64,000 bases of DNA, from contig DATHVN010000157.1 of the NCBI GenBank assembly GCA_035461305.1, positions 2,271 through 66,270 on the forward strand, read 5' to 3'. Under the pieces are notes generated by a model. It ran no database searches, had not been told where the DNA came from, and worked only from the letters and a program-made list of their open reading frames with translations. Below are positions 16,272 through 51,866 of this stretch, piece after piece. Position 1 is the stretch's first letter. Each line of letters opens with the position of its first letter. A program made the position numbers and the translations under genes. The DNA comes from Euzebyales bacterium (GTDB lineage Bacteria > Actinomycetota > Nitriliruptoria > Euzebyales > JAHELV01).

Positions 16272-16717
16272 TCAGCGGTCGATGTGGGCCAGGCGCAGCT
16301 GGCCGCGTGCGACGAGCTTGCCGTCGTCGCGGGTGATGCGGACCTCCCAGACCTGCTGGGTGCGCCCCTGGTGGACGGGGAGCGCCTCGATGTCGAGTTC
16401 GCCCTGACGGAACGGCCGGCAGAACTCGGTGTAGTTCGAGACGCCGACGACCGACTGGGCCTGCTCTGCGGCCTTCATGTGGCACCCAGGCTGCCGACCG
16501 TCTCGACGACCGACGCGTGCCAGCCGCCGTGGAGGATCCCCGCCTCCTGGTGGTGGCGGGGGCCGACCTGGGCGCGCGCACGCGCCTTGGTCGGGCCGAC
16601 CTCCAGCAGGGTGAGGCCCAGCCCGGCTGTCAGGCCACGGCCGTGCGGGGATCGGTCGAGCTCCGCCGGCAGCTGCGCGAGCAGCTCGGCGACCTCACTC
16701 ATCGCGGCGGGCCTCAA
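16272..16717 (-). pseudogene. PaaI/hotdog-fold thioesterase split by a 1-nt frame break
   Basis: ORF 16475..16717 ends ...GILHGGWHASVVETVGSLGAT*. ORF 16272..16478 continues MKAAEQAQSVVGVSNYTEFCRPF...VWEVRITRDDGKLVARGQLRLAHIDR in another frame. Together they make one hotdog domain. Confidence 0.65.
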
Positions 16718-17561
16718 GGAAGTGCTCGATCTCCGCCGCGAGATCGTCGCCGGTCGGCAGCTCCTCGTCGTCCTCGCCGGCGTCGACCATCTGCTCGAGT
16801 GCCGTGACCATCGAGGCCGCGTCGTCGTGCTCGGCGACGGCCTCGGCGACCTGCTCGAGGTGCAGCGTCACCGCCGCCCGCAGCTCGGTGGTGTCGATGT
16901 CGACGCTGAGGGCGCCGGCGATGCGCTCGGCCAGCGCCAGCGCGGCCGGTGGGTGCGGGTTGGTGGCGATGTAGTGCGGAACCTCCGCCCACAGGCCGAC
17001 GGCCGGGATGTCGTGACCGGCCAACTCGGCCTGGAGCACCGTGCTGGCGTTGATCGGACCGGTGTAGCCGGTGACGTCGACCGCGTCGAACTCCAGCACC
17101 TGGTTCACGCGGTTGCGCGCACGGCTGACCGCGACCGGCCGGGTATGCGGCGTCGCGGCCGGGTAGGCGCCCAGCTGGACGACCTGCTCGACGCCGAGCT
17201 GGCGGCACACGTCGGCGACCTGCCGGGCGAACGCCTGCCAGCGCATGTCCGGCTCGGGGCCGAGCAGCAGCAGGACGTCGCGGTCGCCGTCGTCGAGCGT
17301 CGCGGCCAGCAGCTCGATCTCCGGCCAGTCGATGCGCCGCACGACCCCGGAGTCGACCACCGCTGTAGGGCGCCGGGCGCGGTAGTCGATCAGGGCGTCG
17401 CCGTCGAGGCGGGCGATCGGCTCCGCCCGCCAGCGGTGTCGGAGGAAGGCCGACGCGTTGGACGCGGCGCTTCCTGCATCGACGAAGCCGTCGAGCGCGA
17501 CGATGAGGACAGCGCGGCGCAAGGTCGGTGGTTCGCGGACCCAGTGCAGCAACTCGGACAT
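16695..17561 (-). CDS. PAC2 (proteasome assembly chaperone 2) family protein
   Basis: 288 aa. LIVALDGFVDAGSAA, LLLLGPEPDMRWQAF and an acidic C-terminal tail are typical of actinobacterial PAC2 proteins. Confidence 0.8.
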   Translation of the reverse strand: MSELLHWVREPPTLRRAVLIVALDGFVDAGSAASNASAFLRHRWRAEPIARLDGDALIDYRARRPTAVVDSGVVRRIDWPEIELLAATLDDGDRDVLLLLGPEPDMRWQAFARQVADVCRQLGVEQVVQLGAYPAATPHTRPVAVSRARNRVNQVLEFDAVDVTGYTGPINASTVLQAELAGHDIPAVGLWAEVPHYIATNPHPPAALALAERIAGALSVDIDTTELRAAVTLHLEQVAEAVAEHDDAASMVTALEQMVDAGEDDEELPTGDDLAAEIEHFLEARRDE

Positions 17562-17603
17562 GCCGCCAGGCTAGCGGCGGACGTTGCCGCCGGAGCGCGA
17601 ACC

Positions 17604-18317
17604 CTAGGTGCCGGTGTCCGCCTCGGAGGGGGGGACGCTGCCACGCTTGGCCGCGGCGGGGTCGCGCGAGCGTCCCCGAGGGATGCGCTCGCGACCGTCG
17701 GAGCCGGGGCGCGTGCGCTCGGCGCCGTCGGAGTCGGGGCGCGTCCGCTCGGCGCCGTCGGAGCCGGGGCGCGTCCGCTCGGCGCCGTCGGAGCCGGAGC
17801 GCGTCCGCGGCGCCCGGGACCGGCCGCTGGCCCGAGTCCGGTCGGGCCGTTGGCGGACCGCGGGCCGTTCCGGGTGCTCGGTGGCCGGCGTCCGGGGCGC
17901 CTCGGGGCTGTTCGGGCTCCGCCGTGCCGAGGACGGCGCCGCGTCGTTCGTGCCGTCCGTCGACGGCGGCGCGGCTGTCGGCTGCTCGGCGGCCAGCGGT
18001 GGGGCCACCGTGTCGGACCGCACCGGCGGCGCCGGCTGCACCCGTGACGCCTGCAGGCTGCGCAGCACCCCGAGGGCGATGCCGGCGAGCAGCGCGTAGC
18101 CGAGCACGCCGATGAGGGTGGTGAGCACGAAGTCCTGCTCACCGAACATGCCCTGGAAGGGCACGAGGAACACGACCGAGAGACCCCGGACGAAGGCGAC
18201 GATGATGTTGTCCTCGTTGGCTTCGAGCAGCCGGAACAGCGCGTCGAACGCCAGGACCCCGACGATGAACACGAGCAGCGTGTTGATCCAGCGGCCGACA
18301 CTATCCCAGTAATTCAT
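17604..18317 (-). CDS. Membrane protein with Arg/Asp-rich repetitive C-terminal tail
   Basis: Start taken at MNYWDSVGRW (18317). Two or three TM helices, then a Pro/Ala-rich linker and GAERTRPGSD repeats. Confidence 0.6.
   Translation of the reverse strand: MNYWDSVGRWINTLLVFIVGVLAFDALFRLLEANEDNIIVAFVRGLSVVFLVPFQGMFGEQDFVLTTLIGVLGYALLAGIALGVLRSLQASRVQPAPPVRSDTVAPPLAAEQPTAAPPSTDGTNDAAPSSARRSPNSPEAPRTPATEHPERPAVRQRPDRTRASGRSRAPRTRSGSDGAERTRPGSDGAERTRPDSDGAERTRPGSDGRERIPRGRSRDPAAAKRGSVPPSEADTGT
17667..17816. repeat. 30-bp in-frame tandem repeat (3 near-perfect copies flanked by 2 degenerate copies)
   Basis: Units at 17697-17726, 17727-17756 and 17757-17786 differ by 1-2 nt and encode GAERTRP(G/D)SD. 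Confidence 0.85.
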
Positions 18318-18401
18318 CGAGGCTCCTTGGCGCGCCCCCGGTGACTCGCACGGTTGCTGCGAATCCCAAGGGTAGTCGGTTTGACACCGATGCGACACGC
18401 C

Positions 18402-19020
18402 CTATCCAGGCCCGTCACCGCCGGTCAGCACCCGCCGGTAGCGGCGGAACTGGAAGCTGCGACGGCGCTCGGCGGCGACACGACTGCGAGACCCGGAGCC
18501 CTGGCCAGCAGGCGCCGAGCGCGACCGTGTTTTCGAGGCGGACCAGCGGCGGCGCCCGAGGCAGCACTGATGCCGGTACCGAACCCCACGTGGGGTTCGG
18601 GCTGCGGTCGAGGTCGAGCGTATCGGGATCGGCGAACGCCTCGGGATCGCGGTTCGCGCTGGCCAGCCGCAGGCCGGCCCGCGTGCCCGGCTCGAGCAGG
18701 GAGTGGATGTTGAGCGGGTTCCAGGGTCGTGGCGCTCACGCGGCTCGTACGGCGTGCAGACGCGACCGAGGCGGCGGTCGCGCAGCAGGCGGGCGACGTC
18801 GGCGTGCCTGGCAACGAGCTGCATGCCGGGTTTGTCGCACCAGGCAGGCGCAAACGTGAAGCAGAAGGTGCAGTTCAGTGGCCCACGCCACAATCCGTCG
18901 TACGTCGGGTACGGATCGTCGACGAGCGTCGCCGGACGAACGGGATGCTGCTCATGGTGTTCCGGCCGGGCGGACGTCGGCGCGCCCCCGTGGTGCAGCG
19001 CACGCAGCATCGCTGCAGCG
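18402..19020 (-). pseudogene. Cytochrome P450 relic (internal deletion plus frameshifts)
   Basis: N-terminal-like DDPYPTYDGLW...MQLVARHADVARLLRDRR. The C-terminal heme-loop region is spread over three frames (NPHVGFGTGI / HQCCLG / LVRLENTVALGA). The span is about 0.6 kb where about 1.2 kb is expected. Confidence 0.55.
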
Positions 19021-19146
19021 CGACGGCACGGGGCGGCGGCCGCGGGGCCAGCAGGACCTCCGGGTCCGCCGGCTCGGGCGACCGCTGCCTGCCGCACGAC
19101 CCATCGCGCGGCACGCAGGTCCCGATCGGCCCCGAGGACGCGGTGA

Positions 19147-22822: not shown

Positions 22823-23095
22823 CGCAGTCCTTCCTGATCACCGACGGCGGTCCATGCGCCCGTCGAGGCACCGACTGACAGGGTTACGGTGACCTTCCGT
22901 TCCGTTGTGGTTCCACAAGCCTCGCACACGTTGCGACGGTGACGATGGGGCGCCTCTCGGTCCTCCACTGCGCGGCCACGCTGGGTGCGTTCGACGCACG
23001 ATGCTGGTCCGGGGGGAGCCGTCCCCGCGCGGCGTCGGCGTCCGTCGATCGATGACGGATCGACATGCGGGCATCCGCTGACTCGGCCACGTCGT

Positions 23096-23884
23096 GTCTC
23101 CTGCCCCGCCGAGCAGCGCCGCAGGACGATCGTCGCGCTGGTGCGCTCCAAGCCGTTCGTGCGCGTCGCCGACCTGTCGCGCCAGTTCGGCGTGTCCGAG
23201 GTCACCATCGGCGCCGACCTCGAATCGCTCGACGCGGAGGGCCACATCCGTCGCGGGGGCGCCGTCGTCGTCCCGCAGCCACGCCATGAGGTCTCGTACC
23301 TGGAGTCGCTCGGCGAGCATGCCAGGGAGAAGGACGCGACCGGCGCGGTGGCGGCCGCCCTCGTGCTGCCCGGCGAGTCGGTCTTCATCGACGTCGCACC
23401 ACCGCCACCGCGCTGGCACGTGCGCTGTGATCTCGAGGACACCGTGCTGCTGACCAAGCCCTGCCCACCGCGCTGGAGCTCGAGGCCGCGATCCCCGCTT
23501 CACGGTCATCGTCATCGGCGTCACGCTCCGGCCCCTCCAGCACTCGCTGGTCGACCCGCCGGCGCCCGTGCTGCTGGCGCAGCTGCACGTCGACGCGGCC
23601 TTCATCGGGTGCACCGGGACCACGGCCACGGAGGGCATCACGAACATCAACCTCCCGGAGGCCGGGGTGAAGCGCCAGGTCGTGCAGGCGGCGCGACGGA
23701 CCATCGTCATCGCCGACGGCACGAAGGTCGGCTCCGTGTCGCTGGCGCCGGTCTGCCCGACCGACGCCATCGAGCTGCTGGTCGCCGGCTCGTCGGCGCC
23801 GACCGACGAGCTGGACCAGCTCGAGGCCGGGCGCCTGGCGGTCGACGTCGTCGAGCTCGCCGACCGGCCGACCAGCGGGGGTAG
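23096..23884 (+). pseudogene. DeoR-family regulator disrupted by at least four 1-nt frame changes
   Basis: The HTH is intact (RRRTIVALVRSKPFVRVADLSRQFGVSEVTIGADLESL). The sugar-binding domain can only be read by switching frames near 23396, 23428, 23457 and 23496: TTATALARAL / CDLEDTVLLT / ALPTALELEAAIP / RFTVIVIGVTLRP...LLAQLHVDAAFIGCTG. Confidence 0.65.
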
Positions 23885-23971
23885 TGCGCCCCACCTGCTT
23901 GCACCGCCACGCGCCGTCGTCGAGTCTGCTGCCGTGCAGGACCGGCCGCGATCAGCGCGCCGGAGGGAGCC

Positions 23972-25798
23972 GTGCCAAGGGGGCGCACCGATGCGGAGAT
24001 CCTTCTTCGTCTGCGGAGATCCTTGTTCGTCTGTTGTCTCGTGGTCGCGATGCTCGCGGCCCTCGTGCCCGTCGCCGCGGCGGCGCCGGGCGGGAGGGAC
24101 CGCGCGCCGCACAAGGATCCCGTCGCCACCGGCCGCGGCGGTGCGGTCTCGACCGTCGACCCCGTCGCGACCGAGGCGGGCCTGGAGGTGTTGCGCAACG
24201 GAGGCAACGCCGTGGATGCGGCGGTCGCCGCCGCAGCGACGCTGGGCGTGACCGAGCCGTACTCTGCCGGCATCGGCGGTGGCGGCTTCATGCTGATCCG
24301 CCTCGCCGAAACGGACGAGATCGTCGTCATCGACGGTCGCGAGGAGGGTCCCGACGACATCGGTTCGACGTCGACGTGTTCGCGCCGTACGCCAGTGATT
24401 TCTTCGACGCCGTCAACAGCGGTCTCTCAGTGGGCGTTCCCGGCACGCTCGCCACGTGGGTGGCGGCACTCGACCACTACGGGACGATCTCGCTGAAGCA
24501 GGCGCTGCGGCCCGGCATCAGGGCAGCACAGAATGGCTTCGTGGTCGACGAGACCTACGCCGAACAGACCGCCGGCAACCTCGAGCGGTTCCGGCAGATC
24601 ACGCCGACGGCCGAGACCTACCTCGTCGACGGCGAGGTGCCTCAGGTCGGCAGCCGGGTGCGCAACCGAGATCTGGCCCGGACCTACCGCGAGCTCTCGC
24701 GGCGCGGACCGGAGTGGCTCTACGGCGGCGACCTGGGCGAGGAGGTCGTCGACGCCGTCCAGAACCCGCCGACCGCCAACGAGACCCTCGAGGAGTGGCA
24801 GCCGGGCTACATGGACATCTGGGATCTGGCCAGCTACGAGGTGCAGTACCTCGCGCCGACCGAGGTCGACTTCCTCGGCTACCGGGTGTTCGGCATGCCG
24901 TCACCGTCGAGCGGCGGCATCACGGTCGGCGAGACGCTGAACATCATGGAGGACGGCACGTGGTCGGACCCGTCCGGCTTCTACCACCTGTTCCTCGAGG
25001 CGACGGCGCACGCCTTCGCCGACCGCAACGCCTACATCGGCGACGACCGGGTACGTCTATGTGCCGGAGGACGGCCTGCTGTCGGAGGAGTTCGCCTCCG
25101 AACGCTTCGCGCAGATCGACCCGACCAGCGCCAGCGTGAAGCCAGTGGCACCGGGAGATCCGTGCGACGAGGACGGCGGCACCAACTGCCTGCCCGATCC
25201 GAACGCCGTGGACGCGGCCGAGGGCGAGTCCACGACACACCTCGTGACGGCCGACCGCTGGGGCAACGTGGTCAGCTACACGTTGACCATCGAGCAGACG
25301 GGCGGTAGCGCGATCACCGTGCCCGACCGCGGGTTCCTGCTCAACAACGAGCTGACCGACTTCAACTTCACCGGTCCGAGCCCGAACCTGCCCGCGCCCG
25401 GCAAACGGCCACGGTCGAGCATGAGCCCGACCATCGTGCTCGACGACGGTGACCCGGTGCTGGCCGTCGGCACGCCCGGTGGATCGACGACCATCACGAC
25501 CGTCGCCCGGATCCTGGCCAACCGGCTGGGACGTGACATGCCGCTGCCCGAGGCGGTGGAGGAGCCCCGGGCGACGCAGCGCAACACACCGCAGGTGAGG
25601 CCCGAGCCGGCGTTCGTCGAGGCGTACGGCGCGGAGCTCGAAGCGCTCGGCCACGTGTTCGAGGACCCGCCGACCCAGGAGCTCGGCGCGGCAACGGCGA
25701 TCGAGCTGCTCGGCCCCGGCCGCTTCCTCGCCGTCGCCGAGGCGGTGCGGCGCGGTGGTGGTGACGCCGGCGTCGTCCGGCAGCATCGGGGACGCTGA
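23972..25798 (+). pseudogene. ggt: Gamma-glutamyltransferase with start-region duplication and two frameshifts
   Basis: GGT sequence is spread over ORFs 23972..24496, 23884..25308 and 25061..25798. Frame breaks lie near 24362 and 25048. The catalytic TTH (ESTTHLVTAD) and GGSTTIT motifs are present. Confidence 0.75.
23993..24032. repeat. 20-bp tandem duplication overlapping the last base of the native ggt ATG
   Basis: GCGGAGATCCTTCTTCGTCT (23993-24012) and GCGGAGATCCTTGTTCGTCT (24013-24032). Removing one copy restores ATG-CGG-AGA... = MRRSLFVCCLVVAMLAALVPVAAAAP. Confidence 0.85.
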
Positions 25799-27110: not shown

Positions 27111-27120
27111 CTCCCATCGG

Positions 27121-27244: not shown

Positions 27245-27337
27245 GGAGGCGTCAGGATTCCTGGTGGGTCCCACGGTCTTCAAAACCGATGAACCGGCGC
27301 CAAGCCGGTTGGCGGGTTCGATTCCCGTTCGCCTCCG
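27245..27337 (+). tRNA. selC: tRNA-Sec (anticodon UCA)
   Basis: GGAGGCG...CGCCUCC acceptor (7 bp plus a U-U pair). 6-bp D-stem GGAUUC/GGGUCC. Anticodon loop CUUCAAA with UCA at 27280-27282. Long variable arm AACCGG-7 nt-CCGGUU. T arm GCGGG-UUCGAUU-CCCGU. Discriminator G; CCA is not encoded. Confidence 0.85.
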
Positions 27338-27448
27338 CGACGACCGCCGGACCGTCCCGGCAACCGCCTCGGAACGACCCGACGGTCCGGCCTGCGTCGC
27401 GGCGCGCGGGACGCACGGCTGCACCGCTCCCCAGCCCCGACCCAGGCG

Positions 27449-29808: not shown

Positions 29809-30174
29809 CTGGTCATCCGGAATTTCGCGTGCGCGATCGCCAATTTGCGGGCACAATGTTCGCCGCTGGCGCTTCCCCGCCTCGGCAGTCCGTGCTACTC
29901 GGAAGAGGCCCGGTCCACGACACTGTGCACGACCGGCCTCGCCGGACAGGAAGACCGCTGCAGTTCGAGCACGACGCTTGCCACACACGCCGAGCAACGG
30001 AAAACGATTGGTGCTGCACCTACCTGCACAGCCAAGGAGTTGTTCTACGATGACCGGCGTCGCTTGACCGCGCGAAACCGCAGACCTGACGGAGCCGCGC
30101 CACGGGCATGCACCCAGGGCTGACGGCTCGGGCAACGATGTTTCGAACGTCGAACCGCATCGGGGAGATCGCGC

Positions 30175-31194
30175 ATGCCTGAGACCATCGCGGGCAGATA
30201 CGCGTTGTTGACCAACATCGGCGCTGGCGGCAGTGCCGATGTCTGGCAGGCACGGGACACCGTGCTGCAGCGCGACGTGGCCATCAAGCGCTTCGCGCCG
30301 GGCCACTCGATGGACGCGGCCATGACCCGCGAGCTGGGCGCCCTGTCGAGCCTGGACCACCCGGGGATCGTGCGCCTGTACGACGCCGGAGTCGAGGACG
30401 AGCGCCCCTACCTGGTCGTCGAGCTGGTCGACGGCCCTACCCTGCGTGAGCGCCTGGGGTACGGACCGCTAACGCTCGAGCAGGCACGCATCCTCGGGCG
30501 CGACGTCGCCGAGGCGCTCGCCCATGCCCACGAGCACAACCTGGTGCATCAGGACGTCACACCGACCAACATCCTGCTCGACCTCGACGAGGGGCGCGCC
30601 CGGCTGACGGACTTCGGCATCTGCACCCCGCCACGACAGGACACCGACCGGAACGGCTGCCTGGGGACGACGTCGGGGTACACGGCGGTCGAACAGCTGT
30701 TGGGCGGGCCGATCTGCCCGGCAGCCGACGTGCACGCACTCGGGCTCGTGCTGCTCGAGGCCCTGACGGGCCACAAGGAGTTCGACGGCTCTCCGCTGGC
30801 CGCGGCTGTCGCCCGCGTGCGCCGCCAGCCGACGATCCCGCAGGACCTCCCCTCACCCTGGCCACAGCTGCTGTCGGCCATGACCGCCAGGGACCCGGCC
30901 AAGCGCCCGAGCGCCGCCACCGTGGCCGCCTACCTCGACGCGTACCAGGCGATGGACCTGCCGCCGCTGGAGCAGGCACCCACAGCACAGCAGGTCGCGT
31001 CCGACGTCCGCGAGCTGACGGTCGCGGGTTTCGTCCGCCGCCATCCGAAGGTCGCGGTCACCACGGCGGCCGTGATCACCGGCTTCATGCTCTCCTGGCC
31101 GCTCGAGGCCGTGTCGGATTCGCCCCAGGCCGAGATCACGCCCGGTGTCATGGCATCGGAGATCCCAGCCGACGAGGCGAACCTGTCGAACTAG
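30175..31194 (+). CDS. Ser/Thr protein kinase with a non-canonical catalytic loop and a C-terminal TM anchor
   Basis: IGAGGSADVW, VAIKRF and TDFG are present. The catalytic loop reads HQDVTPTN instead of HRDxKxxN. TM segment VAVTTAAVITGFMLSWPL. Confidence 0.85.
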   Translation: MPETIAGRYALLTNIGAGGSADVWQARDTVLQRDVAIKRFAPGHSMDAAMTRELGALSSLDHPGIVRLYDAGVEDERPYLVVELVDGPTLRERLGYGPLTLEQARILGRDVAEALAHAHEHNLVHQDVTPTNILLDLDEGRARLTDFGICTPPRQDTDRNGCLGTTSGYTAVEQLLGGPICPAADVHALGLVLLEALTGHKEFDGSPLAAAVARVRRQPTIPQDLPSPWPQLLSAMTARDPAKRPSAATVAAYLDAYQAMDLPPLEQAPTAQQVASDVRELTVAGFVRRHPKVAVTTAAVITGFMLSWPLEAVSDSPQAEITPGVMASEIPADEANLSN

Positions 31195-31490
31195 CCGCGC
31201 GGCGCTGGCCGCACATCTCGACGCCGTGCGGTCGCGCATGGCCGACCTGGAGCGGTTCACGCTGGTGCTCGAGGCGGCCCTGGAGCTGCGAGAGCCGACG
31301 GCGGTGCATCTGGCCCCGCTGCAGGCGCTCGCCCGCCTGTCGTCCGGCGCGGCCTCGGGCGACCATCCCGCCGCCACAGGGCCACCGGGCGCTTTCGCAC
31401 GTTCGGGCCTGCCCGAGCTGGCTGAGCACCCGACCTTCGACCAACTCGACGGGTTGCTGCAGCTCGCTGCACTGGGCGAGGGTTGGGCGA

Positions 31491-36088: not shown

Positions 36089-36299
36089 GTCATCGGGCGA
36101 GGCGTCCTACCAGAGCACGCACCGGCAGCGCACACGTGACGCGCGCCGCGCACGACACGGCCGACGGGTGCCGCCTACGCGGTGCCGGATACCATCGAAG
36201 GTGGCCTGCAGGCATGCGCGCGCACCCATCGTGGTCGAACGCGCCGCGATCGGGAACACTCCGCGCAGGTCGTCAGCACGCACATCGGTGGAGCGCCCA

Positions 36300-39200
36300 A
36301 TGGCGGACAGGCAGCAGTTCGGAGCCAACCTCTGGCTCGTCGACGAGATGTACCAGCAGTACCTGGCGCGACCCGAGTCGGTGAGCGCGACGTGGCAGGA
36401 GTTCTTCAGCGACTACCGCCCCGCCTGGGACACCACGACCGGACGGCGGACGGCCGACACGGCGCGATCGACCAACGGTGACAGGGCTGCACCGGACGGA
36501 CGGCCGGAGACCGACGACGCGCAGGCCGACCGCGCCCGTCCGCACGCGACGACGGACGGCGACGAATCCCACGAGGACGGGGTCCCTGAGGACGCCAGCC
36601 CGCTGCGTGGCGTCGCCGCCACGATCGCCGACAACATGGGCGAGAGCCTGTCGGTGCCGACCGCGACCTCGATCCGGGTCGTGCCCGCCAAGCTGCTCGA
36701 GGTCAACCGCAAGATCATCAACAACCAGCTGCGCCGCACACGGGGTGGCAAGGTCAGCTTCACCCACCTGATCGGCTGGGCGATGGTCCAGGCGTTGCAG
36801 CACATGCCGGTCATGGCCTCCAGCTACCACGAGGACGCCGACGGCACGGGCTATGTGCGGCGCCCCGACGCGATCAACCTGGGCCTGGCGATGGACGTCG
36901 AGCGCAAGGACGGCTCGCGGACCCTGCTCGTGCCCAACGTCAAGGACGTGGGCACGCTCGACTTCGGCGGGTTCTTCCGCGGCTACGAGGAAGTCGTGCG
37001 CAAGGTCCGCCGCAACGAGCTGTCGATGGACCTGTTCGCCGACACGACGGCCACCCTGACCAACCCAGGGACGGTCGGCACGGTCGGCAGCGTCCCCCGG
37101 CTGATGCGCGGCCAGAGCATGATCCTGGGCGTGGGCGCCATCGGCTATCCCAGCGAGTACAAGGCCACGGACCCACGGACACTGGCCGAGCTGGGGGTCG
37201 GCAAGGTCATCACCATCACCTCGACCTACGACCACCGCGTCATCCAGGGCGCTGAGTCCGGCTTGTTCCTGTCCTACATCGAGCAGCTGCTGCTCGGCGA
37301 GCACAAGTTCTACGACGGGATCTTCACGAGCCTGAAGATCCCGTACGAGCCGGCGCGGTGGCGAACCGACGACAACCCGCGTGTGGCCGACCGCGGCTAC
37401 GACAACCTCGCCGCCAAGCAGATCGCGGTCCAGCAGCTGATCAACATGTACCGGGTGCGCGGGCACCTGATCGCCAACCTCAACCCGCTGATGCACACGT
37501 TCCAGCGCCTTCACCCCGAGCTGGACATCCTGACGTACGGCCTGACGATCTGGGACCTGGACCGCGAGTTCCTGACCGGGCTGCACACCGGCGAGCCGCT
37601 CATGGGCCTGGGCGACCTGCTGGGGCTACTGCGCGACGCCTACTGCCGCACCACCGGCATCGAGTACATGCACATCCAGGAGCCGGACCAGAAGACCTGG
37701 ATCCAGGAGCGCGTCGAGGGCGTGAGCACCGAGCTCGACGTGGCCGAACAGCGTCACATCCTGAGCCGTCTCAACGCGGCCGAAGCGTTCGAGAAGTTTC
37801 TGCAAACCAAGTTTCTGGGTCAGAAGCGCTTCTCGCTGGAGGGCGCGGAGTCGGTCATCCCGATGCTCGACGCGTTGCTGTCCGCCGCAGCCGACGCGGG
37901 CATCGGCGACGCGGTCATGGGCATGGCCCACCGCGGCCGCCTCAACGTGCTCGCCAACATCCTGGGCAAGAGCTACGAGAAGATCTTCACCGAGTTCGAG
38001 GGCCACATCGACCCAGACAGCGTGCAGGGCTCGGGCGACGTCAAGTACCACATGGGCACCCGTGGACGCCACAGGTCACCGAACGGCAGCGAGATCGACG
38101 TGTTCCTTTCAGGCAACCCGAGCCACCTCGAGGCGGTGGACCCGGTGGTCGTGGGGATGGTGCGGGCCAACCTCGACCAGCTCGAGCGGCGCGACGACCG
38201 GTACCCGGTGCTGCCGGTGCTGATCCACGGCGATGCGGCCTTCGCGGGGCAGGGCGTCGTCTCCGAGACGATGTCGATGAGCCAGCTCCGTGGGTACCGC
38301 GTCGGCGGCACCGTCCACATCATCGTCAACAACCAGCTGGGCTTCACGACGGCCCCGCACCAGAGCCGTTCAAGCCAGTACGCGACCGACGTCGCCAAGA
38401 CCGTCCAGGCACCGATCTTCCACGTCAACGGCGACGACCCGGAGGCGTGCGTGCGGGTCATCCGTCTGGCGTTGGACTTCCGGCAGGCGTACGGCAAGGA
38501 CGTCGTCGTCGACATGGTCTGCTACCGCCGGCACGGCCACAACGAGGGCGACGAGCCCGGCTACACCCAGCCGATCATGTACGCGGCCATCGAGAACCGT
38601 CGCAGCGTGCGCAAGCTGTACACCGAGGAGCTGGTGACCAGGGGCGACCTGACGCTCGACGAGGCCGAGGAGGCGCTCGTCGACTTCCGGGCCCAGCTCG
38701 ACACCGCGCTCGAGGAGACGCGGGAGTCGGCGCCGCCGCTGCGTGAGGTCTCACTGGAGGCCGAGGTCGACGGCGTCCTTCCGCACATCGACACCGGCGT
38801 CAGCCGGGAACGGCTCGAACAGATCGTGGGCGCGATCACATCGTGGCCGGACGGCTTCACCGTGCACCCCAAGCTGGGCAGGCAGCTCGAGAAGCGCCGG
38901 GACCGGCTGGACCGCGACGCCGTCGACTGGGCGATGGCCGAGGCACTGGCCTTCGGCTCGCTGCTGCTGGAGGGCACGCCGGTCCGCATGGCGGGCCAGG
39001 ACTCGCGACGTGGAACGTTCAGCCAGCGCCACGCGGTCCTCATCGACCACGAGACCGGTGCCGAGCACGTGCCGCTGGCCAACCTGTCCGACGACCAGGC
39101 CATGTTCAAGATCTACGACTCGCCGCTCAACGAGTTCGCCGCCCTCGGCTTCGAGTACGGCTACTCGGCCGCGCGCAAGGACGCGCTGGTCGTCTGGGAG

Positions 39201-39947
39201 GCGCAGTTCGGCGACTTCGTCAACGGCGCGCAGGTCATCATCGACCAGTTCGTCACCGCCGCGCAGGACAAGTGGGGACAGGCCAGCGGCCTCGTCATGC
39301 TGCTTCCCCATGGGTACGAGGGTCAGGGGCCCGAGCACTCCTCTGCGCGGATCGAGCGGTTCCTGCTGAGCGCGGCCGAGGACAACATCCAGGTCACCCA
39401 GCCCAGCACCGCCGCGCAGTTCTTCCACCTGCTGCGCCGGCAGATGCACAGAGACGTCCGCCGCCCGCTGATCGTCTTCACGCCCAAGGGCATGCTGCGG
39501 GCCAAGCCCGCCACCAGTCCCACCAAGGACTTCCTCGAGGGCAGCTTCCAGGAGGTCCTCGACGACGCCGACGCGCCCGAGAACGTCCGCCGCGTGGTGC
39601 TCTGCTCGGGCAAGCTCGCCCACCAGCTGCGTGCCAAACGCGCCTCGATGCAGGCACCGGCCGCCGTTGTGCGCGTCGAGCAGCTGTACCCCTGGCCGGG
39701 CGAGCAGCTCGGCGAGGTGCTGGCGCGCTACGAGGACGCCACCGAGGTCCTGTGGGTCCAGGACGAGCCCGAGAACATGGGGCCGTGGCCGTTCGTCCAC
39801 GCGCGCCTGCACCGCCTGCTCGGCAGCGAGCGCACGTTGCGCCACCGCAGCCGCGCCGAGAGCGCGAGCCCCGCGGCCGGCAGCTCACAGATCCACAAGC
39901 AGGAGGAGGAGCTGCTGCTCGACGCCGCGTTCGCCGAGCTCGACTAG
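36300..39947 (+). CDS. kgd: Multifunctional 2-oxoglutarate decarboxylase/dehydrogenase (E1 with N-terminal E2-like acyltransferase domain)
   Basis: Start MADRQQFGANLWLVDEMYQQY (GGTGGAG RBS). Acyltransferase core TSTYDHRVIQGAESG. E1 ThDP region GDAAFAGQGVV... Confidence 0.95.
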   Translation: MADRQQFGANLWLVDEMYQQYLARPESVSATWQEFFSDYRPAWDTTTGRRTADTARSTNGDRAAPDGRPETDDAQADRARPHATTDGDESHEDGVPEDASPLRGVAATIADNMGESLSVPTATSIRVVPAKLLEVNRKIINNQLRRTRGGKVSFTHLIGWAMVQALQHMPVMASSYHEDADGTGYVRRPDAINLGLAMDVERKDGSRTLLVPNVKDVGTLDFGGFFRGYEEVVRKVRRNELSMDLFADTTATLTNPGTVGTVGSVPRLMRGQSMILGVGAIGYPSEYKATDPRTLAELGVGKVITITSTYDHRVIQGAESGLFLSYIEQLLLGEHKFYDGIFTSLKIPYEPARWRTDDNPRVADRGYDNLAAKQIAVQQLINMYRVRGHLIANLNPLMHTFQRLHPELDILTYGLTIWDLDREFLTGLHTGEPLMGLGDLLGLLRDAYCRTTGIEYMHIQEPDQKTWIQERVEGVSTELDVAEQRHILSRLNAAEAFEKFLQTKFLGQKRFSLEGAESVIPMLDALLSAAADAGIGDAVMGMAHRGRLNVLANILGKSYEKIFTEFEGHIDPDSVQGSGDVKYHMGTRGRHRSPNGSEIDVFLSGNPSHLEAVDPVVVGMVRANLDQLERRDDRYPVLPVLIHGDAAFAGQGVVSETMSMSQLRGYRVGGTVHIIVNNQLGFTTAPHQSRSSQYATDVAKTVQAPIFHVNGDDPEACVRVIRLALDFRQAYGKDVVVDMVCYRRHGHNEGDEPGYTQPIMYAAIENRRSVRKLYTEELVTRGDLTLDEAEEALVDFRAQLDTALEETRESAPPLREVSLEAEVDGVLPHIDTGVSRERLEQIVGAITSWPDGFTVHPKLGRQLEKRRDRLDRDAVDWAMAEALAFGSLLLEGTPVRMAGQDSRRGTFSQRHAVLIDHETGAEHVPLANLSDDQAMFKIYDSPLNEFAALGFEYGYSAARKDALVVWEAQFGDFVNGAQVIIDQFVTAAQDKWGQASGLVMLLPHGYEGQGPEHSSARIERFLLSAAEDNIQVTQPSTAAQFFHLLRRQMHRDVRRPLIVFTPKGMLRAKPATSPTKDFLEGSFQEVLDDADAPENVRRVVLCSGKLAHQLRAKRASMQAPAAVVRVEQLYPWPGEQLGEVLARYEDATEVLWVQDEPENMGPWPFVHARLHRLLGSERTLRHRSRAESASPAAGSSQIHKQEEELLLDAAFAELD

Positions 39948-40075: not shown

Positions 40076-42043
40076 TTAGCGGGCGAGTGCCTCGATGAAC
40101 AGGCGCTCGAGGTTCTTCAGCTCAGGCGACGACACCACGCGCCCGCCAACGAGCTCGCTGACCTCCGCGAGCTTGTCGAGGTCGGGCTGCACGCCATAGG
40201 CGATCGACACGACCTGGATCGGCTCCTGCGCACGGTGCAGCCGAGCGAGGCTGGAGAGCAGCCGCTCGTGGCTGATGCTGTCGGCGTCATCGTTGCGTCC
40301 GTCGGTCAGCAGAACGATGAGGTGGCGGCGGCCAGCGACGTAGTTGTTGCGCAGGCGCTGGTACGCGGCGAGCAGGGAGTCGTTGAGTGCCGTGTCCTTC
40401 TCGGAGTCGATGGCGTCGAGCTGCGCGGTCAGATCGTCCTTGTGGGATCGCCCGTCGCGCACCCGCGACAGCGGCGCGAGCTCGGCGAGCTCGCGGTAGT
40501 CACCACCGGCGCTGCCGCCCTCCAGCTCGGTCGAGAACTCCCACAGACCGACCTCGCTGCCGTTGGGGATGATGTCCAGGCTCTCCTTGGCCGCATCGAC
40601 GGTCGCCTGGAGCCGGGTCTGGCCTGTCAACGGCACGAGCTCCTGCATCGATCCGGAGACGTCGAGGAGGAACAGCGTCCTGCTGATGCGTGGGACCGTC
40701 AGCCACGACGAGCGGAGCTTGCGGAACGCCCCGACCTTCGGCAGCTCGCCCGGTGGCTCGGCGCCCACCTGGTCCATGGCCTGCATGCACTCCTCGTTGC
40801 GGAGGACCTTCCCGGGCTGGTTCTCGCGCGTGCGGAACCCCGCGTCGGTGAACATCTGGACGCCCGCGTCGCTCAGCAGATAGTCCTTGAACTCGTCGGC
40901 GAACTGCAGGACGTCGCTGCTCACCCACGACGTGTCCAGCAGCACGTACGGGTAGTCGGACTCCATGGCGACGTCGTTGCTGCCCTCGGGATACATCGCC
41001 ACCAGCTCCGGCCGGTCGCCGGCCTCGGGCGACGTCTCGGTGGGCCCCGGCGACGCCCCGGGCGACGGAGCACCCGTCTCGTTGAACCGCCAGACCTCCC
41101 GCTCCTCGAGCGGGGTCGCCGACAGCGCCCGCAGCGGCGCATCGGCCTGCGCGTAGCGCTCGAGCGTCTCCACCGAGCTCGTGTCAATGTTGGCCAGCGC
41201 CCGCTGCACCCGGAACAGGCTCAGCGGCGTTCCGGCCTCCACTGCGCCGTCGCCGGTTGCCGTGTCGAGGGCCAGCAGCGCCTGCAACCCCGTGGTCGTG
41301 TACCGCGGGTCGGTCAGCTCGAGGCGGAACTGCCCCCAGCCGGGCTCGCCGGCGTCGTCCCAGGTGTCCTCGGCGTCGGCGAGCCTGAAGAACTCATCCC
41401 ATGACAGGCGGCGTTCGGGCCAGCCGAGCTTCTGGGCCATCGGCAGCGGCATCGCCATGACCGTCGGGGACCGCGCAAGCACCGTCGGGTCCTCCGACAG
41501 CATCTCCGTGCTCTTCTCGTCGAGCTGCGCGCGGAGCAACTCGACCCACAGCGTGGACTGCGGGATCCACACATCGGGGCGCGGCCCGTGCGTGTCCTCC
41601 CGCCAGCCGTTCACCAGCCGTCCGACGACCGCAGAGGCCGTGACCGGCCGGACCTCGATGCGGATGCAGTCACGTCCCGAGGCGTGCAGGTCGGCGGTGT
41701 AGCGGTCCGCGAGCTCCTGCACGATCCGCACGACCGCCTCGTCGGCCGCCACGTCGAGGGTTTCCGCGTCCGCACCACACTCCTCGGCCATCTCGCTCGG
41801 ACCGGCGGCGGGCGCGGGCTCGTTGCGTGGCACGAACGTGGCGAGCGCCACCCCGATCCCCATGCCCACGGCGACGATCGCCACGGCGAGGCCGGCCTTC
41901 GGCCACACCCCTTCGAACCCTCGTGACTGCTGATCCTGTGATGACAAGTTACGCCCGCCGCTGAAGACGCCGTCGCGCACGATCACCCAACGGTACTGCG
42001 ACGCGTACGTCGTGCACGGACCGACCGCTGGACGCGCCACCAT
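40076..42043 (-). CDS. Substrate-binding plus von Willebrand factor A domain protein, membrane anchored
   Basis: TM GLAVAIVAVGMGIGVALATFV. MIDAS LFLLDVSGSM...TALNDS...IVLLTDGRND. The start is uncertain. Confidence 0.75.
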   Translation of the reverse strand: MVARPAVGPCTTYASQYRWVIVRDGVFSGGRNLSSQDQQSRGFEGVWPKAGLAVAIVAVGMGIGVALATFVPRNEPAPAAGPSEMAEECGADAETLDVAADEAVVRIVQELADRYTADLHASGRDCIRIEVRPVTASAVVGRLVNGWREDTHGPRPDVWIPQSTLWVELLRAQLDEKSTEMLSEDPTVLARSPTVMAMPLPMAQKLGWPERRLSWDEFFRLADAEDTWDDAGEPGWGQFRLELTDPRYTTTGLQALLALDTATGDGAVEAGTPLSLFRVQRALANIDTSSVETLERYAQADAPLRALSATPLEEREVWRFNETGAPSPGASPGPTETSPEAGDRPELVAMYPEGSNDVAMESDYPYVLLDTSWVSSDVLQFADEFKDYLLSDAGVQMFTDAGFRTRENQPGKVLRNEECMQAMDQVGAEPPGELPKVGAFRKLRSSWLTVPRISRTLFLLDVSGSMQELVPLTGQTRLQATVDAAKESLDIIPNGSEVGLWEFSTELEGGSAGGDYRELAELAPLSRVRDGRSHKDDLTAQLDAIDSEKDTALNDSLLAAYQRLRNNYVAGRRHLIVLLTDGRNDDADSISHERLLSSLARLHRAQEPIQVVSIAYGVQPDLDKLAEVSELVGGRVVSSPELKNLERLFIEALAR

Positions 42044-43571: not shown

Positions 43572-44711
43572 GTGCAGTTCCGACGACAAGACGCCGCAGT
43601 CGACCAGGGCACGCTGCCGGCCGACGACGTCGAGACCACGGCCCGGGCACGGCCCGACAGCGTGCCGCGACCCCTGACCCAACGCCCGACGATCCGCCTC
43701 GGCGCCTACGCGTGGGCGGTGGTCGGCATCGTGGCCGTGGTAGTGCTCGTCATGCTCGTGATCGGCCAGCTGTCTATCGTGACCGCCCCGCTCGTGCTCG
43801 CGCTGTTCCCGGCCGCCGTCCTGAACCCGCTTGCCGTCCGGCTGAAGACCCGCGGCTTGCGCGACGCGCTGGTCGCGGCTCTGTTGGTCGTCGGCACGCT
43901 GCTCGTGATCAGCGCCACGTTCACCGTCCTGGTGCCGGTGGTGTCGGGTCAGATCGACGACCTCAGCGCCCAGTTCAACCAGGGCATCGAGGACCTGCGC
44001 ATGTTCCTCGCGCGTGGGCCGTTCGGGCTCGCGCCGATCGATCTCAACGACCTGATCGAACAGGCGCGCGAGCGGATCCAGTCGGCTGACATGTTCAGCT
44101 CGGGTGCCGTCACATCGGTGGCGGGGCAGGCCGGGCGGTTCCTCACCGGTCTGATCCTCTTCGTCATCGCACTGTTCTTCTACCTCAAGGACGGCCCGCT
44201 GCTCGCGGCCTGGCTGCGACGCCAGTTCCCGCACTCGTTGCGCGACGACGCCTCAGCGATCGGCGTCCAGGTGTGGACGACCATCGGGTCCTACTTCCGC
44301 GGTCAGCTGCTGGTGGCGTTGATCGACGCCATCGGCATCACGATCGGGCTGTTGATCCTGCGTGTGCCGCTCGCGCTGCCGATCGGCGTCCTCGTGCTGT
44401 TCGGCGGACTGTTCCCGCTCGTCGGTGCGTTCGTCAGCGGCTCGGTCGCCGTCATCGTCTCGTTGGCGACGCAGGGGCCTGTTACGGCGCTGATCGTGCT
44501 CGGCGTCGTCCTGGGTGTGCAACAGCTCGAAGGCAACCTGCTGCAACCCCTGATCCTGGGCCGCGCGACCCAGCTCCATCCGCTCGCCGTGGTGGGCTCG
44601 CTGATCGCGGGCGGTGCCCTGTTCGGCATCCTCGGCGCGTTCCTGGCAGTGCCGGTCGTCGCCAGCGCCTGGCGGACGATCGGCTATCTGCGCGCCCGCG
44701 TGCCGGGCTGA
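43572..44711 (+). CDS. AI-2E family transporter (PerM-like)
   Basis: 379 aa, multi-TM. The C-terminal LLQPLILGRATQLHPLAVVGSLIAGGALFGILGAFLAVP is typical of the family. Confidence 0.85.
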   Translation: MQFRRQDAAVDQGTLPADDVETTARARPDSVPRPLTQRPTIRLGAYAWAVVGIVAVVVLVMLVIGQLSIVTAPLVLALFPAAVLNPLAVRLKTRGLRDALVAALLVVGTLLVISATFTVLVPVVSGQIDDLSAQFNQGIEDLRMFLARGPFGLAPIDLNDLIEQARERIQSADMFSSGAVTSVAGQAGRFLTGLILFVIALFFYLKDGPLLAAWLRRQFPHSLRDDASAIGVQVWTTIGSYFRGQLLVALIDAIGITIGLLILRVPLALPIGVLVLFGGLFPLVGAFVSGSVAVIVSLATQGPVTALIVLGVVLGVQQLEGNLLQPLILGRATQLHPLAVVGSLIAGGALFGILGAFLAVPVVASAWRTIGYLRARVPG

Positions 44712-45239
44712 TCCGTGCCGGTGCGCGGCCGGGCCGACGTGTCGAGCAGCAGGGCGACGCTGGCAGACTCCACCGCGGTGCTCGAGCTCGTCGCTGTGCA
44801 CCACCGCGGTGCCCCGCCACGCGGTCGTGCAGCGCTCCGCGGTCGGGGTCGCGCCACAGCGTGATCATGCCGATCCCGAACAGCACGATGCCGGCGGTGC
44901 GCACGCATGTCCGCAGCACCGCCGCCCGGCGGGTCGGGAAGCCGCCGGCGGTGTCGCGCACCTCGATGGCGAGGATCCGACGTCCGGCCGTACTCCCCCA
45001 GCGGTTGATGCTGAGCGCGTCATAGGCCCCACCACCCCACCACGACGACGCCGGTCCACACCAGCGCGCGCGGCGCGGTCAACCGTGGCGTGGCGCCCAG
45101 CTCCCCGGTCTCGATGAGCAGGATCAATGCCGGCGACCCACGCCACCCAGAAGCCGCCGACGTCGATCAGGAACGCGGCCGCCCGCTCAGCGGGCTCGGC
45201 GACGGCGAACGACGTCCATCGCGCACGCCGGGTCAGCAC
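44684..45239 (-). pseudogene. RDD-family membrane protein broken by several frameshifts
   Basis: Segments lie in different frames: ERAAAFLIDVGGFWVAWV / LLIETGELGATPRL...VVVVGWWGL / YDALSINRWGSTAGRRILAIEVRDTAGG...ALHDRVAG / AVVHSDE. Confidence 0.55.
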
Positions 45240-45249
45240 GGTGCGGTGG

Positions 45250-46900: not shown

Positions 46901-47019
46901 CACCTCTCCTCGTACACGCCGCCCGCGGCGACCGCGGGAATCACGGCGTGGAGACGCCACGCGACACCAGCGGCCGACAGCCGACCGATGACCCTGCCGC
47001 AAGCCTAGAGCACGGACGA

Positions 47020-47838: not shown

Positions 47839-48001
47839 CGCGTCGCTTCCTGCCCAGCCCCTTCAGCAGCCATGCACGGAAGGCCCCGCCCACGCGGGGC
47901 GGCGTCATCCTGCGCACCCGTCGCGGGCCGTGCTCACCCCGACGTGGCACGATCGTACAGGCCAGGCCCGGCAGGGCCTCCCACCCACGCAGGAGCCGAC
48001 C

Positions 48002-49101: not shown

Positions 49102-50342
49102 GCACGGACGCCCGCTCGGACACCGCGGTCGAGGTGGTGCTCGACGGCTTCGCCCACGGCGGCGCCGCTGTCGGGCGACTTCCCGACGGACGGGCCTGCT
49201 TCGTCGACTACGGCGTCCCTGGCGAGCGGGTCACCGTCCGGATCACCGAGCAGCGACGGCGGTGGGCGCGGGGGACGGTCGTCGAGGTGCTCGACCCGTC
49301 GCCGGACCGGGTGGCGCCGCCGTGCCCGCTCTTCGGTCCCGACAAGTGCGGCGGGTGCAGCACGCAGCACATCGCGGTGCCGCGCCAGGCGGAGCTTCTG
49401 GGAACCGTGATCGCCGACCAACTGCGACGCATCGGCGGCCTCGAGCCGCCCGATGGGACCGTCGAGGTCATCACCCCCCACAGCCCGGACGGCCTCGGCT
49501 ACCGCAACCGCGCCCGGTTCGCGGTGACCGACGACGGGCGGCTGGGCTTTCGCCGGGCCCGCAGCCACGACCCGATCGCCGTGGACGACTGCCCGCTGCT
49601 CGTCCCCGCGGCACGATCCGCGCTGCGCGAGATGGCGCAGGGGTGGTACGGGGTGTCGGAGGTCAGGCTGCAGGCTGGCACCGCCGGGGACACCGCGCTG
49701 GCGGTCACGACGACCGGGCGTGACACGCGGGTGCCGTCACACCTGCCGGCAACGCTGCCGCGCCGGGACCGCAGAGCACGGCCGGACGACCGCGCCCGGG
49801 TCCGCCAGGACGTGGCCGGCCACACGTTCGTGGTGAGTGCGTCCAGCTTCTTCCAGGCCAGCACCGCGGCGGCCGAGGTGCTGGTCGGTCTCGTCCGCGA
49901 GCTCACGCCCGTCGCCGCGGGCAGCCACGTCGTGGACTGCTACGCGGGCGTCGGGCTGTTCTCGGTCGCGTTGGCGTCCGAAGGCGTCCGCGTCACGGCG
50001 ATCGAGTCGGACGTCGGCGCCTGCGCCGACGCCCGGATCAACGCCGCCGGCCTGCCGGTCGACGGCCACCGCGCCGACGTGGCGGCACCGCCAGCCGTCG
50101 ACGTCCCGATCGACGCGGTGGTGCTCGATCCACCGCGGACCGGCGCCGGGCGGGTGGTGACCGACTGGATCGCCGGACTCGCGCCGCATCGCGTGACCTA
50201 CGTGTCGTGCGATCCGGCGACGTTCGCACGCGACGCCCGGGCCCTGACCGACCACGGCATGAGCCTGGAGAAGCTGGTCGGAGTCGACCAGTTCACCCAC
50301 ACCGGCCGGGTGGAGCTGGTTGCAGGGTTCCGCACGCCGTGA
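49098..50342 (+). CDS. TRAM-domain class I SAM-dependent RNA (uracil-5)-methyltransferase (RlmD/TrmA family)
   Basis: GTG 49098 overlaps the prmA stop. Cys cluster CPLFGPDKCGGC. SAM motif VVDCYAGVGLFS. C-terminal YVSCDPATFARD. Confidence 0.8.
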   Translation: MSTDARSDTAVEVVLDGFAHGGAAVGRLPDGRACFVDYGVPGERVTVRITEQRRRWARGTVVEVLDPSPDRVAPPCPLFGPDKCGGCSTQHIAVPRQAELLGTVIADQLRRIGGLEPPDGTVEVITPHSPDGLGYRNRARFAVTDDGRLGFRRARSHDPIAVDDCPLLVPAARSALREMAQGWYGVSEVRLQAGTAGDTALAVTTTGRDTRVPSHLPATLPRRDRRARPDDRARVRQDVAGHTFVVSASSFFQASTAAAEVLVGLVRELTPVAAGSHVVDCYAGVGLFSVALASEGVRVTAIESDVGACADARINAAGLPVDGHRADVAAPPAVDVPIDAVVLDPPRTGAGRVVTDWIAGLAPHRVTYVSCDPATFARDARALTDHGMSLEKLVGVDQFTHTGRVELVAGFRTP

Positions 50343-51866
50343 TCGTCCGGTGGTGGCTGGCCGTCCTCGCGCTCGCAGCGTTGCTGGGTGCGGTCCTCCA
50401 GCCGGCCGCGGTGGCCAGCGCGCGTCCGGTGCCGCTGGACCTGCCGCCCCCGCCGGTGACCCGTCCCCGCGCCACGGCCCGGGCACCCACGCATCCGGGT
50501 CTGGACAACCTGCTGGCGCGCCTGCAGCGCTCCCCCAGACCCGCCCCCGGGGTTCCGTCGCGCTGGCGGTCACCGCCGGTGACGGGGCGATGTTGGCGGA
50601 GTGACGGGCGCGCAGGCCGATGCTGCCCGCCTCGACGCCCAAGCTCGTGACCGCGGCTGCCGGGCTGCGCATCCTCGGCGCGGACCACAGGTTCGTGACC
50701 TGCGTCTACGCGACCCGCGCACCCGACGCGTCCGGCGTCGTCGACGGCGACCTCGTCATCGTCGGCGGCGGCGATCCGGCTTGTCCATCCTGACCTACGG
50801 TAGCCGGGTGAGCATGACCCGACCCGCCACACCGTTGCGCCGCCTGGCCGTGCGCACGGAACGTGGCGGGGTGGCGCGGGTCACCGGCCGGGTGCTCGCC
50901 GACGCGTCGGTCCTGGCCGACGAGCCGCTGGCCGGCGGCTGGCGGAACAGCTATCTGACGAGCCTGAACGCCACACGCGTGTCGGGCCTGACCGTCGATG
51001 CGGGCCTGCGGTTGTTCCGTCGCGACGGGCAGCTGCACGGCGCACAGCCGCCGATCCGGCGCGGAGGACCGCACACGAGCTCGACCGCCTGCTCGACCGA
51101 CGCGGCGTCCGCATCACCGGTGCGCCGGCCGTCGGGCGGCTGCCGCGGGGTGCCGTCGAGGTCGCCCGCATCGCCAGCCCCCCACTGTCGGAGCTGCTCG
51201 CGCACACCCTGCGGTTTAGCGACAACCACCTGGCGGATGGCATCTTCCGCATGCTCGGTGCGGCGATCGGCGACCCCACCTGGGGCGGCAGCGCGGACGC
51301 CGCGCGGGCGGCCCTGGCGGACGTCGGCGTCGCCTGGCGTGGCCTGCGCCTGGCGGACGGCTCGGGCCTGTCCCGCCGCAACCGCCTGTCCGCGAAGGCG
51401 CTGGTGGAGGTGCTCGCGGCCATGGCCGACGGACCGTTGCGCCGTCGGTGGCTGCGGCTGCTGCCCGTCGCGGGCCGGACCGGGACGGTGGCCGGCCGCC
51501 TGACCGGCACACAGGCCCGGTCGGGTGCACGCCAAGACGGGAACGCTGCACGACGTGCGTGCGCTCGCGGCCACCGTGCCCAGTCGCGGCGGGCACGACC
51601 ACCACATCGCCATCCTCGTCAACGAGGTCCCGACCTACGACGACGCTGTCGCCGCCCGACGGCTCGCTGACGTCCTCCCGCTCGCCGTCGTCGCCGCGGA
51701 CGACGGTTGCCTCGGACCGGTCCGCGCCCCAGATGGCACCGACCGCCGGCCGCCCGAGCACCACATCTGCGGGGAGCCGGGACCTACGCGCTCGCGCGCC
51801 ACGGTCGTCACGCGGGCCGTAGGGGAGGGCCTCGACCGCCCTGGAGAACGAGAGAGCCGCAGGTGA
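50339..51866 (+). pseudogene. dacB: D-alanyl-D-alanine carboxypeptidase/endopeptidase (PBP4, DacB) with four frameshifts and one in-frame stop
   Basis: Signal peptide VIVRWWLAVLALAALLG. The SxxK motif PASTPKLVTAAAGL follows a TGA at 50602-50604. Frame changes lie near 50550, 50783, 51060 and 51520. The terminal HAKTGTL (KTG) motif is in ORF 51525..51866. Confidence 0.7.

Follow-up and report, generated by a model that had tools for sequence, protein, structure and literature searches.

Are the interrupted reading frames that crowd a 64,000-nucleotide stretch of a Euzebyales genome the remains of genes that have truly died, or the product of faulty sequencing? This stretch (assembly GCA_035461305.1, contig DATHVN010000157.1, positions 2,271 to 66,270 of the forward strand; hereafter the window) had been described in an earlier note, made from the letters alone, as holding at least seven disrupted accessory genes among intact long core genes. 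Our analysis indicates that it very probably carries eight genuine pseudogenes of one Euzebyales lineage, which stand at different stages of decay and are not a sequencing artefact. They occupy a 36-kb part of the window, interspersed with about 35 intact genes. The seven genes listed in the note, encoding a 4HBT/PaaI-type thioesterase, a cytochrome P450, a DeoR-family regulator, a gamma-glutamyltransferase (GGT), a FAD-dependent monooxygenase, an RDD-family membrane protein and DacB, are all disrupted, each with its parts in more than one reading frame, when set against intact syntenic orthologues or close homologues. An eighth, the remnant of a MerR-family regulator, had been missed. Disabling lesions, be they frameshifts, premature stops or the loss of essential parts, were mapped in all eight genes. 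Overall, the number of lesions per gene is close to that first given, except that the FAD monooxygenase has three rather than one or two.

The window was divided by codon-usage Viterbi segmentation, every coding segment was compared with Pfam, and the genes of syntenic relatives were used as tblastn queries. Our annotation comprises about 64 genes, whose coding DNA adds up to 58.3 kb, and the GC content is 70-75% throughout; 8 of these genes are pseudogenes and about 56 are intact. Stitched GGT, DacB and DeoR sequences served as queries in protein searches, and the contigs behind the matches then gave the close relatives. The syntenic relatives, L081 (GCA_036374135.1) to L088, are collinear with the window and share 80-94% amino-acid identity with it. 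They harbor intact orthologues of 4HBT, P450, GGT, MerR, RDD and DacB, while the intact homologues found for DeoR and the FAD monooxygenase are non-syntenic. Four further contigs, 99.8-99.95% identical to the window, represent near-identical strains: L089, L090 and L092 come from ERZ27272640, and L091 is a Logan assembly of SRR9691058. Relatives and near-identical strains alike are metagenome contigs with MEGAHIT-style k141 names, or Logan assemblies. Among the matches listed for a query with kgd (2-oxoglutarate dehydrogenase E1/E2) against genome contigs, no relative exceeds 62% identity. Plain tblastn was misleading for DacB and RDD, since the high GC content lets alignments continue in the wrong frame, and DNA alignments and frameshift-aware protein-to-DNA alignments were used in its place. 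The comparison with sister genomes that the earlier note had proposed was thus made. It gave intact orthologues and a single remnant in about 107 gene calls in the syntenic relatives, versus about 12% dead genes in the 64 kb of the window.

The P450 remnant (18405-18960, minus strand) is the oldest pseudogene of the eight. Its lesions were read from DNA alignment to the genes of L084 and L082, which encode 396 amino acids (aa), and from frameshift-aware alignment. A 651-bp internal deletion lies at about 18692, and both of its ends in the relatives read the 8-bp repeat GCTCGAGC. It is accompanied by insertions of 27 bp and 2 bp, one deletion of 9 bp and six of 1 bp. The cysteine that ligates the haem is gone, the FGxGxHxCxG loop now reading FGTGISAASG. 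With the relatives as outgroups, 50 substitutions are specific to the window versus 13 to L084 (P=6e-4), which corresponds to 9.6 and 2.5 per 100 sites, respectively. These 50 substitutions are split 18/17/15 over the three codon positions, and positions 1 and 2 take 70% of them versus 40% in intact neighbouring genes (P=1e-4).

RDD and MerR are probably old as well. The RDD pseudogene (44687-45239, minus strand) was compared with L086 and L085 by tblastn and DNA alignment, and by frameshift-aware alignment. Besides 1-bp insertions at 45128, 45028 and 44811, it has lost about 362 bp at 44778, and with them roughly residues 157-276 of 304; Pfam RDD matches only one of its fragments. The MerR remnant (31205-31474, plus strand), found with L084 and L082 MerR proteins as tblastn queries, sits between a Ser/Thr kinase gene and an ABC exporter gene. 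Its helix-turn-helix and C-terminus are deleted, with a breakpoint at 31194, and only the middle 270 bp survive, corresponding to residues 86-179 of 291. By DNA alignment, the whole interval measures 303 bp versus about 1,300 bp in the relatives. The remnant is identical in strain L092.

DacB, DeoR and the FAD monooxygenase are of intermediate age. The DacB (PBP4, Peptidase_S13) pseudogene (50339-51817, plus strand) was aligned at the DNA level to L086, L087 and L088 and, allowing for frameshifts, to the proteins P0121 and P0124. It has four frameshifting deletions, of 1 bp at 50531, 50779 and 51045 and of 2 bp at 51518, and an in-frame TGA at 50602; Pfam Peptidase_S13 is found in fragments. 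There is no gap between the window and the separate assemblies L090 and L091 over this gene. The bias of P450 recurs here as a trend, codon positions 1 and 2 taking 59% of the substitutions versus 43% (P=0.07). The DeoR/GlpR-family pseudogene (23081-23865, plus strand) was mapped by frameshift-aware alignment to the proteins P0302, P0303, P0304 and P0311 rather than to syntenic DNA. Its four frameshifts, at about 23396, 23428, 23456 and 23491, all fall inside 100 bp and are common to the window and strain L089. In addition, a 6-bp in-frame deletion hits the conserved RVRGG motif, and the HTH_DeoR and DeoRC domains of Pfam are found in separate frames.

The FAD monooxygenase pseudogene (35082-36154, plus strand) was likewise aligned to full-length homologous proteins (P0424, P0428, P0430 and P0436) rather than to syntenic DNA. 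An in-frame deletion of about 52 aa (~156 bp) at about 35190, between two ADF motifs, read by comparing the aligned homologues with the translation of the window, has taken out the DFRGDT motif. A frameshift lies at about 35436-35442, with Pfam FAD_binding_3 matched in two frames, and a premature stop lies at 36086, past which the similarity to the homologues continues. Strain L092 likewise has the gene in two pieces and aligns to the window here without a gap.

GGT is a recent pseudogene that is still gaining lesions. Spanning 23991-25795 on the plus strand and aligned to L084, L082, L081 and L089, it carries three lesions: a 20-bp tandem duplication straight after the ATG (23992-24031, seen with TRF and in the alignments), the loss of 1 bp at 24357 and the gain of 1 bp at 25049. 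Pfam G_glu_transpept is spread over three fragments. The duplication and the 24357 deletion are also present in L089, whereas the 25049 insertion is specific to the window, and L089 has indels of its own at 24081, 25259 and 25582. The gene has no excess in substitution rate or at particular codon positions. The thioesterase pseudogene (16275-16702, minus strand) has a single 1-bp deletion at about 16482. Orthologues of 143 aa from L084, L082 and L081 align to it with residues 1-74 in one frame and 73-143 in another, Pfam 4HBT matches the C-terminal fragment only, and window-specific substitutions are not in excess. No independent assembly covering the lesion was found, and two metagenome DNA-pattern scans over the site, with and without the missing base, gave no match. 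The Trx cluster member P0599, considered as an assembly of 4HBT from the same strain, was rejected as a relative at 89.5% identity. The lack of a rate signal in both GGT and 4HBT fits recent inactivation. 4HBT appears to be the youngest and least certain of the pseudogenes, either very recently inactivated or unproven, with a very recent mutation and an error being inseparable there. The term recent, which the earlier note had applied to the decay as a whole, thus suits the thioesterase and GGT, but not P450.

The evidence that these lesions are real comes first from their nature. The deletions of 651, ~362 and ~156 bp, the 20-bp duplication, the two nonsense codons and the MerR remnant cannot be base-calling errors. 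Second, the lesions of DeoR, MerR, FAD monooxygenase and DacB and the first two of GGT recur in L089-L092, which were assembled separately and from another sample. The large deletions of P450 and RDD lie outside the coverage of a second assembly, although they are not of an error-like type. Third, the window and L089 differ over 11.3 kb by 8 indel events that are all located in P450, DeoR and GGT (2.8 kb), with no indel in the 8.5 kb of other DNA (P=1.6e-5). Within the pseudogene DNA, the 8 indels stand against 8 substitutions. Together with the codon-blind substitution of P450, these observations bear out the preference of the earlier note for genuine pseudogenisation over consensus error.

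The alternative that survives best is that of a population mosaic, in which the lesions are real but some of them segregate, part of the population keeping working copies; this would concern mainly 4HBT and the 25049 insertion of GGT, which is missing from L089, a strain with other lesions. Divergence between the window and the strains is also patchy. Over the Ser/Thr kinase gene (30000-30842), L089 has 87 mismatches although L092, a contig of the same sample, hardly differs from the window, and from 53 kb on (53000-56400) L090 is about 10% divergent while a further strain, L093, is still at 99.9%. Such mosaicism (at 30.0-30.8 kb, and again beyond 53 kb) points either to recombination among lineages that co-exist or to a chimeric assembly. 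Furthermore, contigs of ERZ27272640 stop within or beside the P450 and RDD pseudogenes (~18579-18723; ~44947 and 45261), where indel polymorphism may break the assembly graph. On the other hand, the older lesions (the duplication and 24357 deletion of GGT, all DeoR frameshifts, and all those of DacB, FAD monooxygenase and MerR) are common to both strains, and GGT, DeoR, DacB, FAD monooxygenase and MerR are thus dead in every haplotype seen. As an account of the whole pattern the mosaic is improbable. A strain-mosaic contig likely holds in part, and modifies the reading of eight genuine pseudogenes without replacing it.

Still less probable is that the frameshifts are sequencing or consensus errors in a genome that is otherwise intact, whether from homopolymer miscalls in long reads or from locally low coverage. 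Most small lesions are indeed of +/-1 bp, many public metagenome-assembled genomes (MAGs) of Acidimicrobiia and Actinomycetota derive from Nanopore data (MFD bins, for example), and 4HBT shows a lone 1-bp deletion without other signs of decay. The distribution of the lesions argues against such errors. The 26 small disabling lesions hit 7 genes, whereas a uniform model over the 58.3 kb of coding DNA expects about 20 and never gave fewer than 12 in 200,000 simulations (P<5e-6 for so few); the remaining ~51 kb of coding DNA has none. The small lesions lie in runs of 1-5 bases, contrary to the claim of the earlier note that several breaks fall in homopolymer runs. The window contains 15 runs of at least 6 bases, only one of them of at least 7, and 1 of the 15 is inside a pseudogene. 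Large deletions and nonsense codons stand beside the indels, as does a 20-bp duplication; the same lesions are seen in separate assemblies, including the Logan assembly; the related assemblies bear k141 names of MEGAHIT style; and codon-blind substitution is observed in P450. Sequencing error is thus rejected for all genes except possibly 4HBT, the one gene to which the localised consensus errors that the earlier note had allowed for may still apply.

The intact genes provide the corresponding control. Five long genes named in the earlier note are single open reading frames (ORFs) with full Pfam or orthologue coverage. These are hppA, encoding the H+-pyrophosphatase (2357-4471, plus strand; H_PPase profile 2-645 of 645); the gene of a MrfA-like DEAD/DEAH helicase (7019-9304, plus strand; domains DEAD, Helicase_C, WHD and MZB; HSJ45870.1); the ABC exporter gene (31491-33419, minus strand; ABC_membrane and ABC_tran; HSJ45893.1), which aligns to residues 4-661 of its L081 orthologue; kgd (36168-39947, plus strand), which has all five Pfam domains and differs from L092 by only 3 substitutions and no gap; and the gene of a protein with SBP_bac_11 and VWA domains by Pfam (40076-41911, minus strand). 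The latter is called with 610 aa in L085 and L092; its 692-aa ORF in the window has no exact match in the protein look-up, and the start codon is probably wrong. Ten intact ORFs of the window translate into proteins with exact counterparts in public collections (HSJ45882-HSJ45912), and eight more have matches in the range HSJ45870-HSJ45908. The five long genes contain 9 of 82 runs of at least 5 bases, yet no lesion. The non-random concentration of broken genes claimed at the outset stands with the count of genes hit. The sparing of the five long genes supports it when counted per lesion (P=0.0026) but not when counted per inactivated gene (P about 0.16, not significant). All eight pseudogenes fall within 31 consecutive genes, at 16-52 kb (P=0.016, an after-the-fact comparison), and no broken gene was found in 1-16.2 kb or 52-64 kb of the window.

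That the split genes still function, through programmed frameshifting, read-through or separate subunits, is barely credible even though GGT is naturally cleaved into two subunits and its third fragment (24941-25795) includes the catalytic Thr region, as the orthologues are single uninterrupted ORFs in all relatives, the lesion positions vary between near-identical strains, key motifs are destroyed (P450 Cys, FAD DFRGDT, DeoR RVRGG) and several genes are short of a third to half of their length.

Several points weigh against the reading of eight genuine pseudogenes. The lesions are known from assembled contigs, and the sequencing platform of the MAG was found stated nowhere. The MAG and ERZ27272640 may go back to common data; as the latter departs from the window by 0.1-0.2% and breaks into contigs at other points, it represents, at the least, another haplotype in another assembly. 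The contig itself may be a mosaic of co-existing strains. Among the individual genes, 4HBT has just one 1-bp deletion, with no rate excess and no second assembly, and the rate and codon-position shifts of GGT and DacB are not individually significant. The lesion map of DeoR was drawn solely from proteins with 63-80% identity, and the apparent polarity of the 1-bp indels of RDD depends on one relative.

Taken as real, the eight pseudogenes suggest a common course of decay. Each gene would first have become dispensable, and its first disabling mutation would have been tolerated. The earlier note had spoken of dispensable functions, and this fits the absence of 4 of the 8 genes from at least one relative: P450, MerR and the FAD monooxygenase (which would lie between SpoU and kgd) are missing at these positions in L081, and DeoR in L081, L082 and L084. 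The dead genes then gathered further lesions, apparently free of constraint, as seen here mostly in the form of 1-bp indels in short runs with few nonsense changes. Such unconstrained decay makes lesions pile up in few genes while their neighbours stay clean. Larger deletions between short direct repeats next remove DNA, as the sequence shows for P450 with its repeat-flanked deletion, and shrink genes to remnants such as those of P450, RDD and MerR. Complete loss would be the end point, as the relatives devoid of P450, MerR, FAD monooxygenase and DeoR suggest.

The abundance of frameshifts may reflect the mutation spectrum of actinobacteria. In mutation-accumulation lines of wild-type Mycobacterium smegmatis, 61 substitutions were counted to 19 indels, and indels are not repaired by NucS (Castaneda-Garcia et al. 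2020, PMC7015689). The frameshift-rich pattern of the window would match this spectrum, by analogy with M. smegmatis. P450 has about 37 excess substitutions to 10 indel events and DacB about 20 to 5, or about one indel per four substitutions. The indel to substitution ratio on the long branch is thus about 1:3-4 here, similar to 19:61 there. If roughly three to four neutral substitutions go with each indel, several frameshifts are expected in a gene after a drift of 1-7%. Unlike in the M. smegmatis lines, in which small insertions outnumber small deletions (PMC7015689), 1-bp deletions predominate in the window.

The decay observed here otherwise resembles the ordinary formation and turnover of bacterial pseudogenes (Kuo & Ochman 2010, PMC2916853). 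Orthologues are intact in relatives, frameshifts, nonsense changes and truncations are followed by progressive deletion, and some relatives have already lost the genes. However, free-living bacteria normally purge such pseudogenes quickly, whereas here 8 of about 64 genes are dead locally, several of them old and hit many times. Multi-lesion pseudogenes with large internal deletions and a preferential loss of accessory functions are also found in reductive genomes, such as those of Mycobacterium leprae, Sodalis glossinidius (PMC7067036) and the Burkholderia leaf-nodule symbionts (PMC6054270). In the latter, none of the small indels lies in a run of more than 6 nt (PMC6054270), and those of the window are likewise not tied to long homopolymers. 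Unlike these genomes, the window, of 64 kb only, is without insertion sequences or transposases (no transposase or integrase domain was found among its Pfam matches) and keeps a collinear gene order, and the Euzebyales lineage comes from soil metagenomes, has no known host association and has sampled relatives that keep the genes intact.

Artefacts of long-read assembly typically appear as many +/-1 bp frameshifts that split ORFs in high-GC genomes. The window shares these split ORFs; its lesions differ in lying outside long homopolymers, in affecting few genes, in the large deletions and nonsense changes that accompany them and in being reproduced in other assemblies. We found no literature on pseudogenes in Euzebyales, and nothing relevant on SRR9691058.

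Other features of the window and its neighbourhood were recorded along the way. Frame switches of the segmentation at the Tad locus (9.4-14.1 kb), the STAS/HATPase pair and the paa operon proved to be ordinary gene boundaries. In the paa cluster, PaaD is present as two ORFs (55681-56031 and ~57330-57491, plus strand), a FeS_assembly_P ORF between paaA and paaB and a Zn_ribbon_PaaD ORF after paaC. This split arrangement, shared by strains L090 and L093, is probably native and no sign of decay. PaaB covers only positions 4-58 of the 89 in its profile; its truncation was dropped as a case of decay, since a strain with 7-12% divergence has the same stop. A perfect in-frame tandem repeat of three 42-bp units (56438-56561, plus strand) sits in a hypothetical ORF of this cluster, with one copy fewer in the near-identical strain L093. 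Two further tandem repeats were noted: four 30-bp units (17686-17808) within a 237-aa hypothetical protein, whose orthologues are shorter (211-215 aa), and 2.3 units of 54 bp (6587-6713) upstream of the STAS gene.

A tRNA-Sec gene (selC, anticodon TCA; 27245-27338, plus strand) is flanked by an AlkZ-like and a hypothetical gene and keeps this place in L081, L082, L084 and L089. In L081, a called 379-aa ORF overlaps it. No sel genes were seen beside it in the window. L081 lacks P450, galK, melibiase, AlkZ, MerR and the FAD monooxygenase at the corresponding positions, and only a C-terminal GalT remnant of 38 aa is left there (L081 9619-9735); the neighbourhood thus turns over across the clade. 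Just past the right end of the window, the 99.9% identical strain L093 shows at 11488-13260 a Guanylate_cyc ORF, then an AAA_16 fragment in another frame, then about 600 bp without a call, which is probably a further broken cyclase-ATPase gene. Long antisense ORFs run over the start of DeoR/GGT (22841-24112, minus strand) and over DacB (51219-51923, minus strand). They are called as genes of 424 and 235 aa in the sister-strain contigs L089 and L090, respectively, and are probably spurious, due to the high GC content.

For annotation, the eight loci are to be marked as pseudogenes, not as multiple short proteins or antisense ORFs. The decay is that of ordinary bacterial genes at an unusually high local density, and calls for no new mechanism. 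This density, together with strain-specific later lesions in the same dead gene, suggests a lineage with relaxed selection or slow purging. A broader idea, that a soil Euzebyales lineage is undergoing genome-wide reductive evolution, with about 10% or more pseudogenes and multi-hit ones that persist through strain diversification, is tentative and in our view rather unlikely. If true, it would mean that a group counted as free-living includes a population that recently went through a bottleneck or took up another lifestyle, and would offer a natural system, accessible from metagenomes, for the neutral indel and deletion spectrum of an actinobacterium of the NucS type. The pseudogenes of the window already form a small natural record of the neutral mutation spectrum of actinobacteria.

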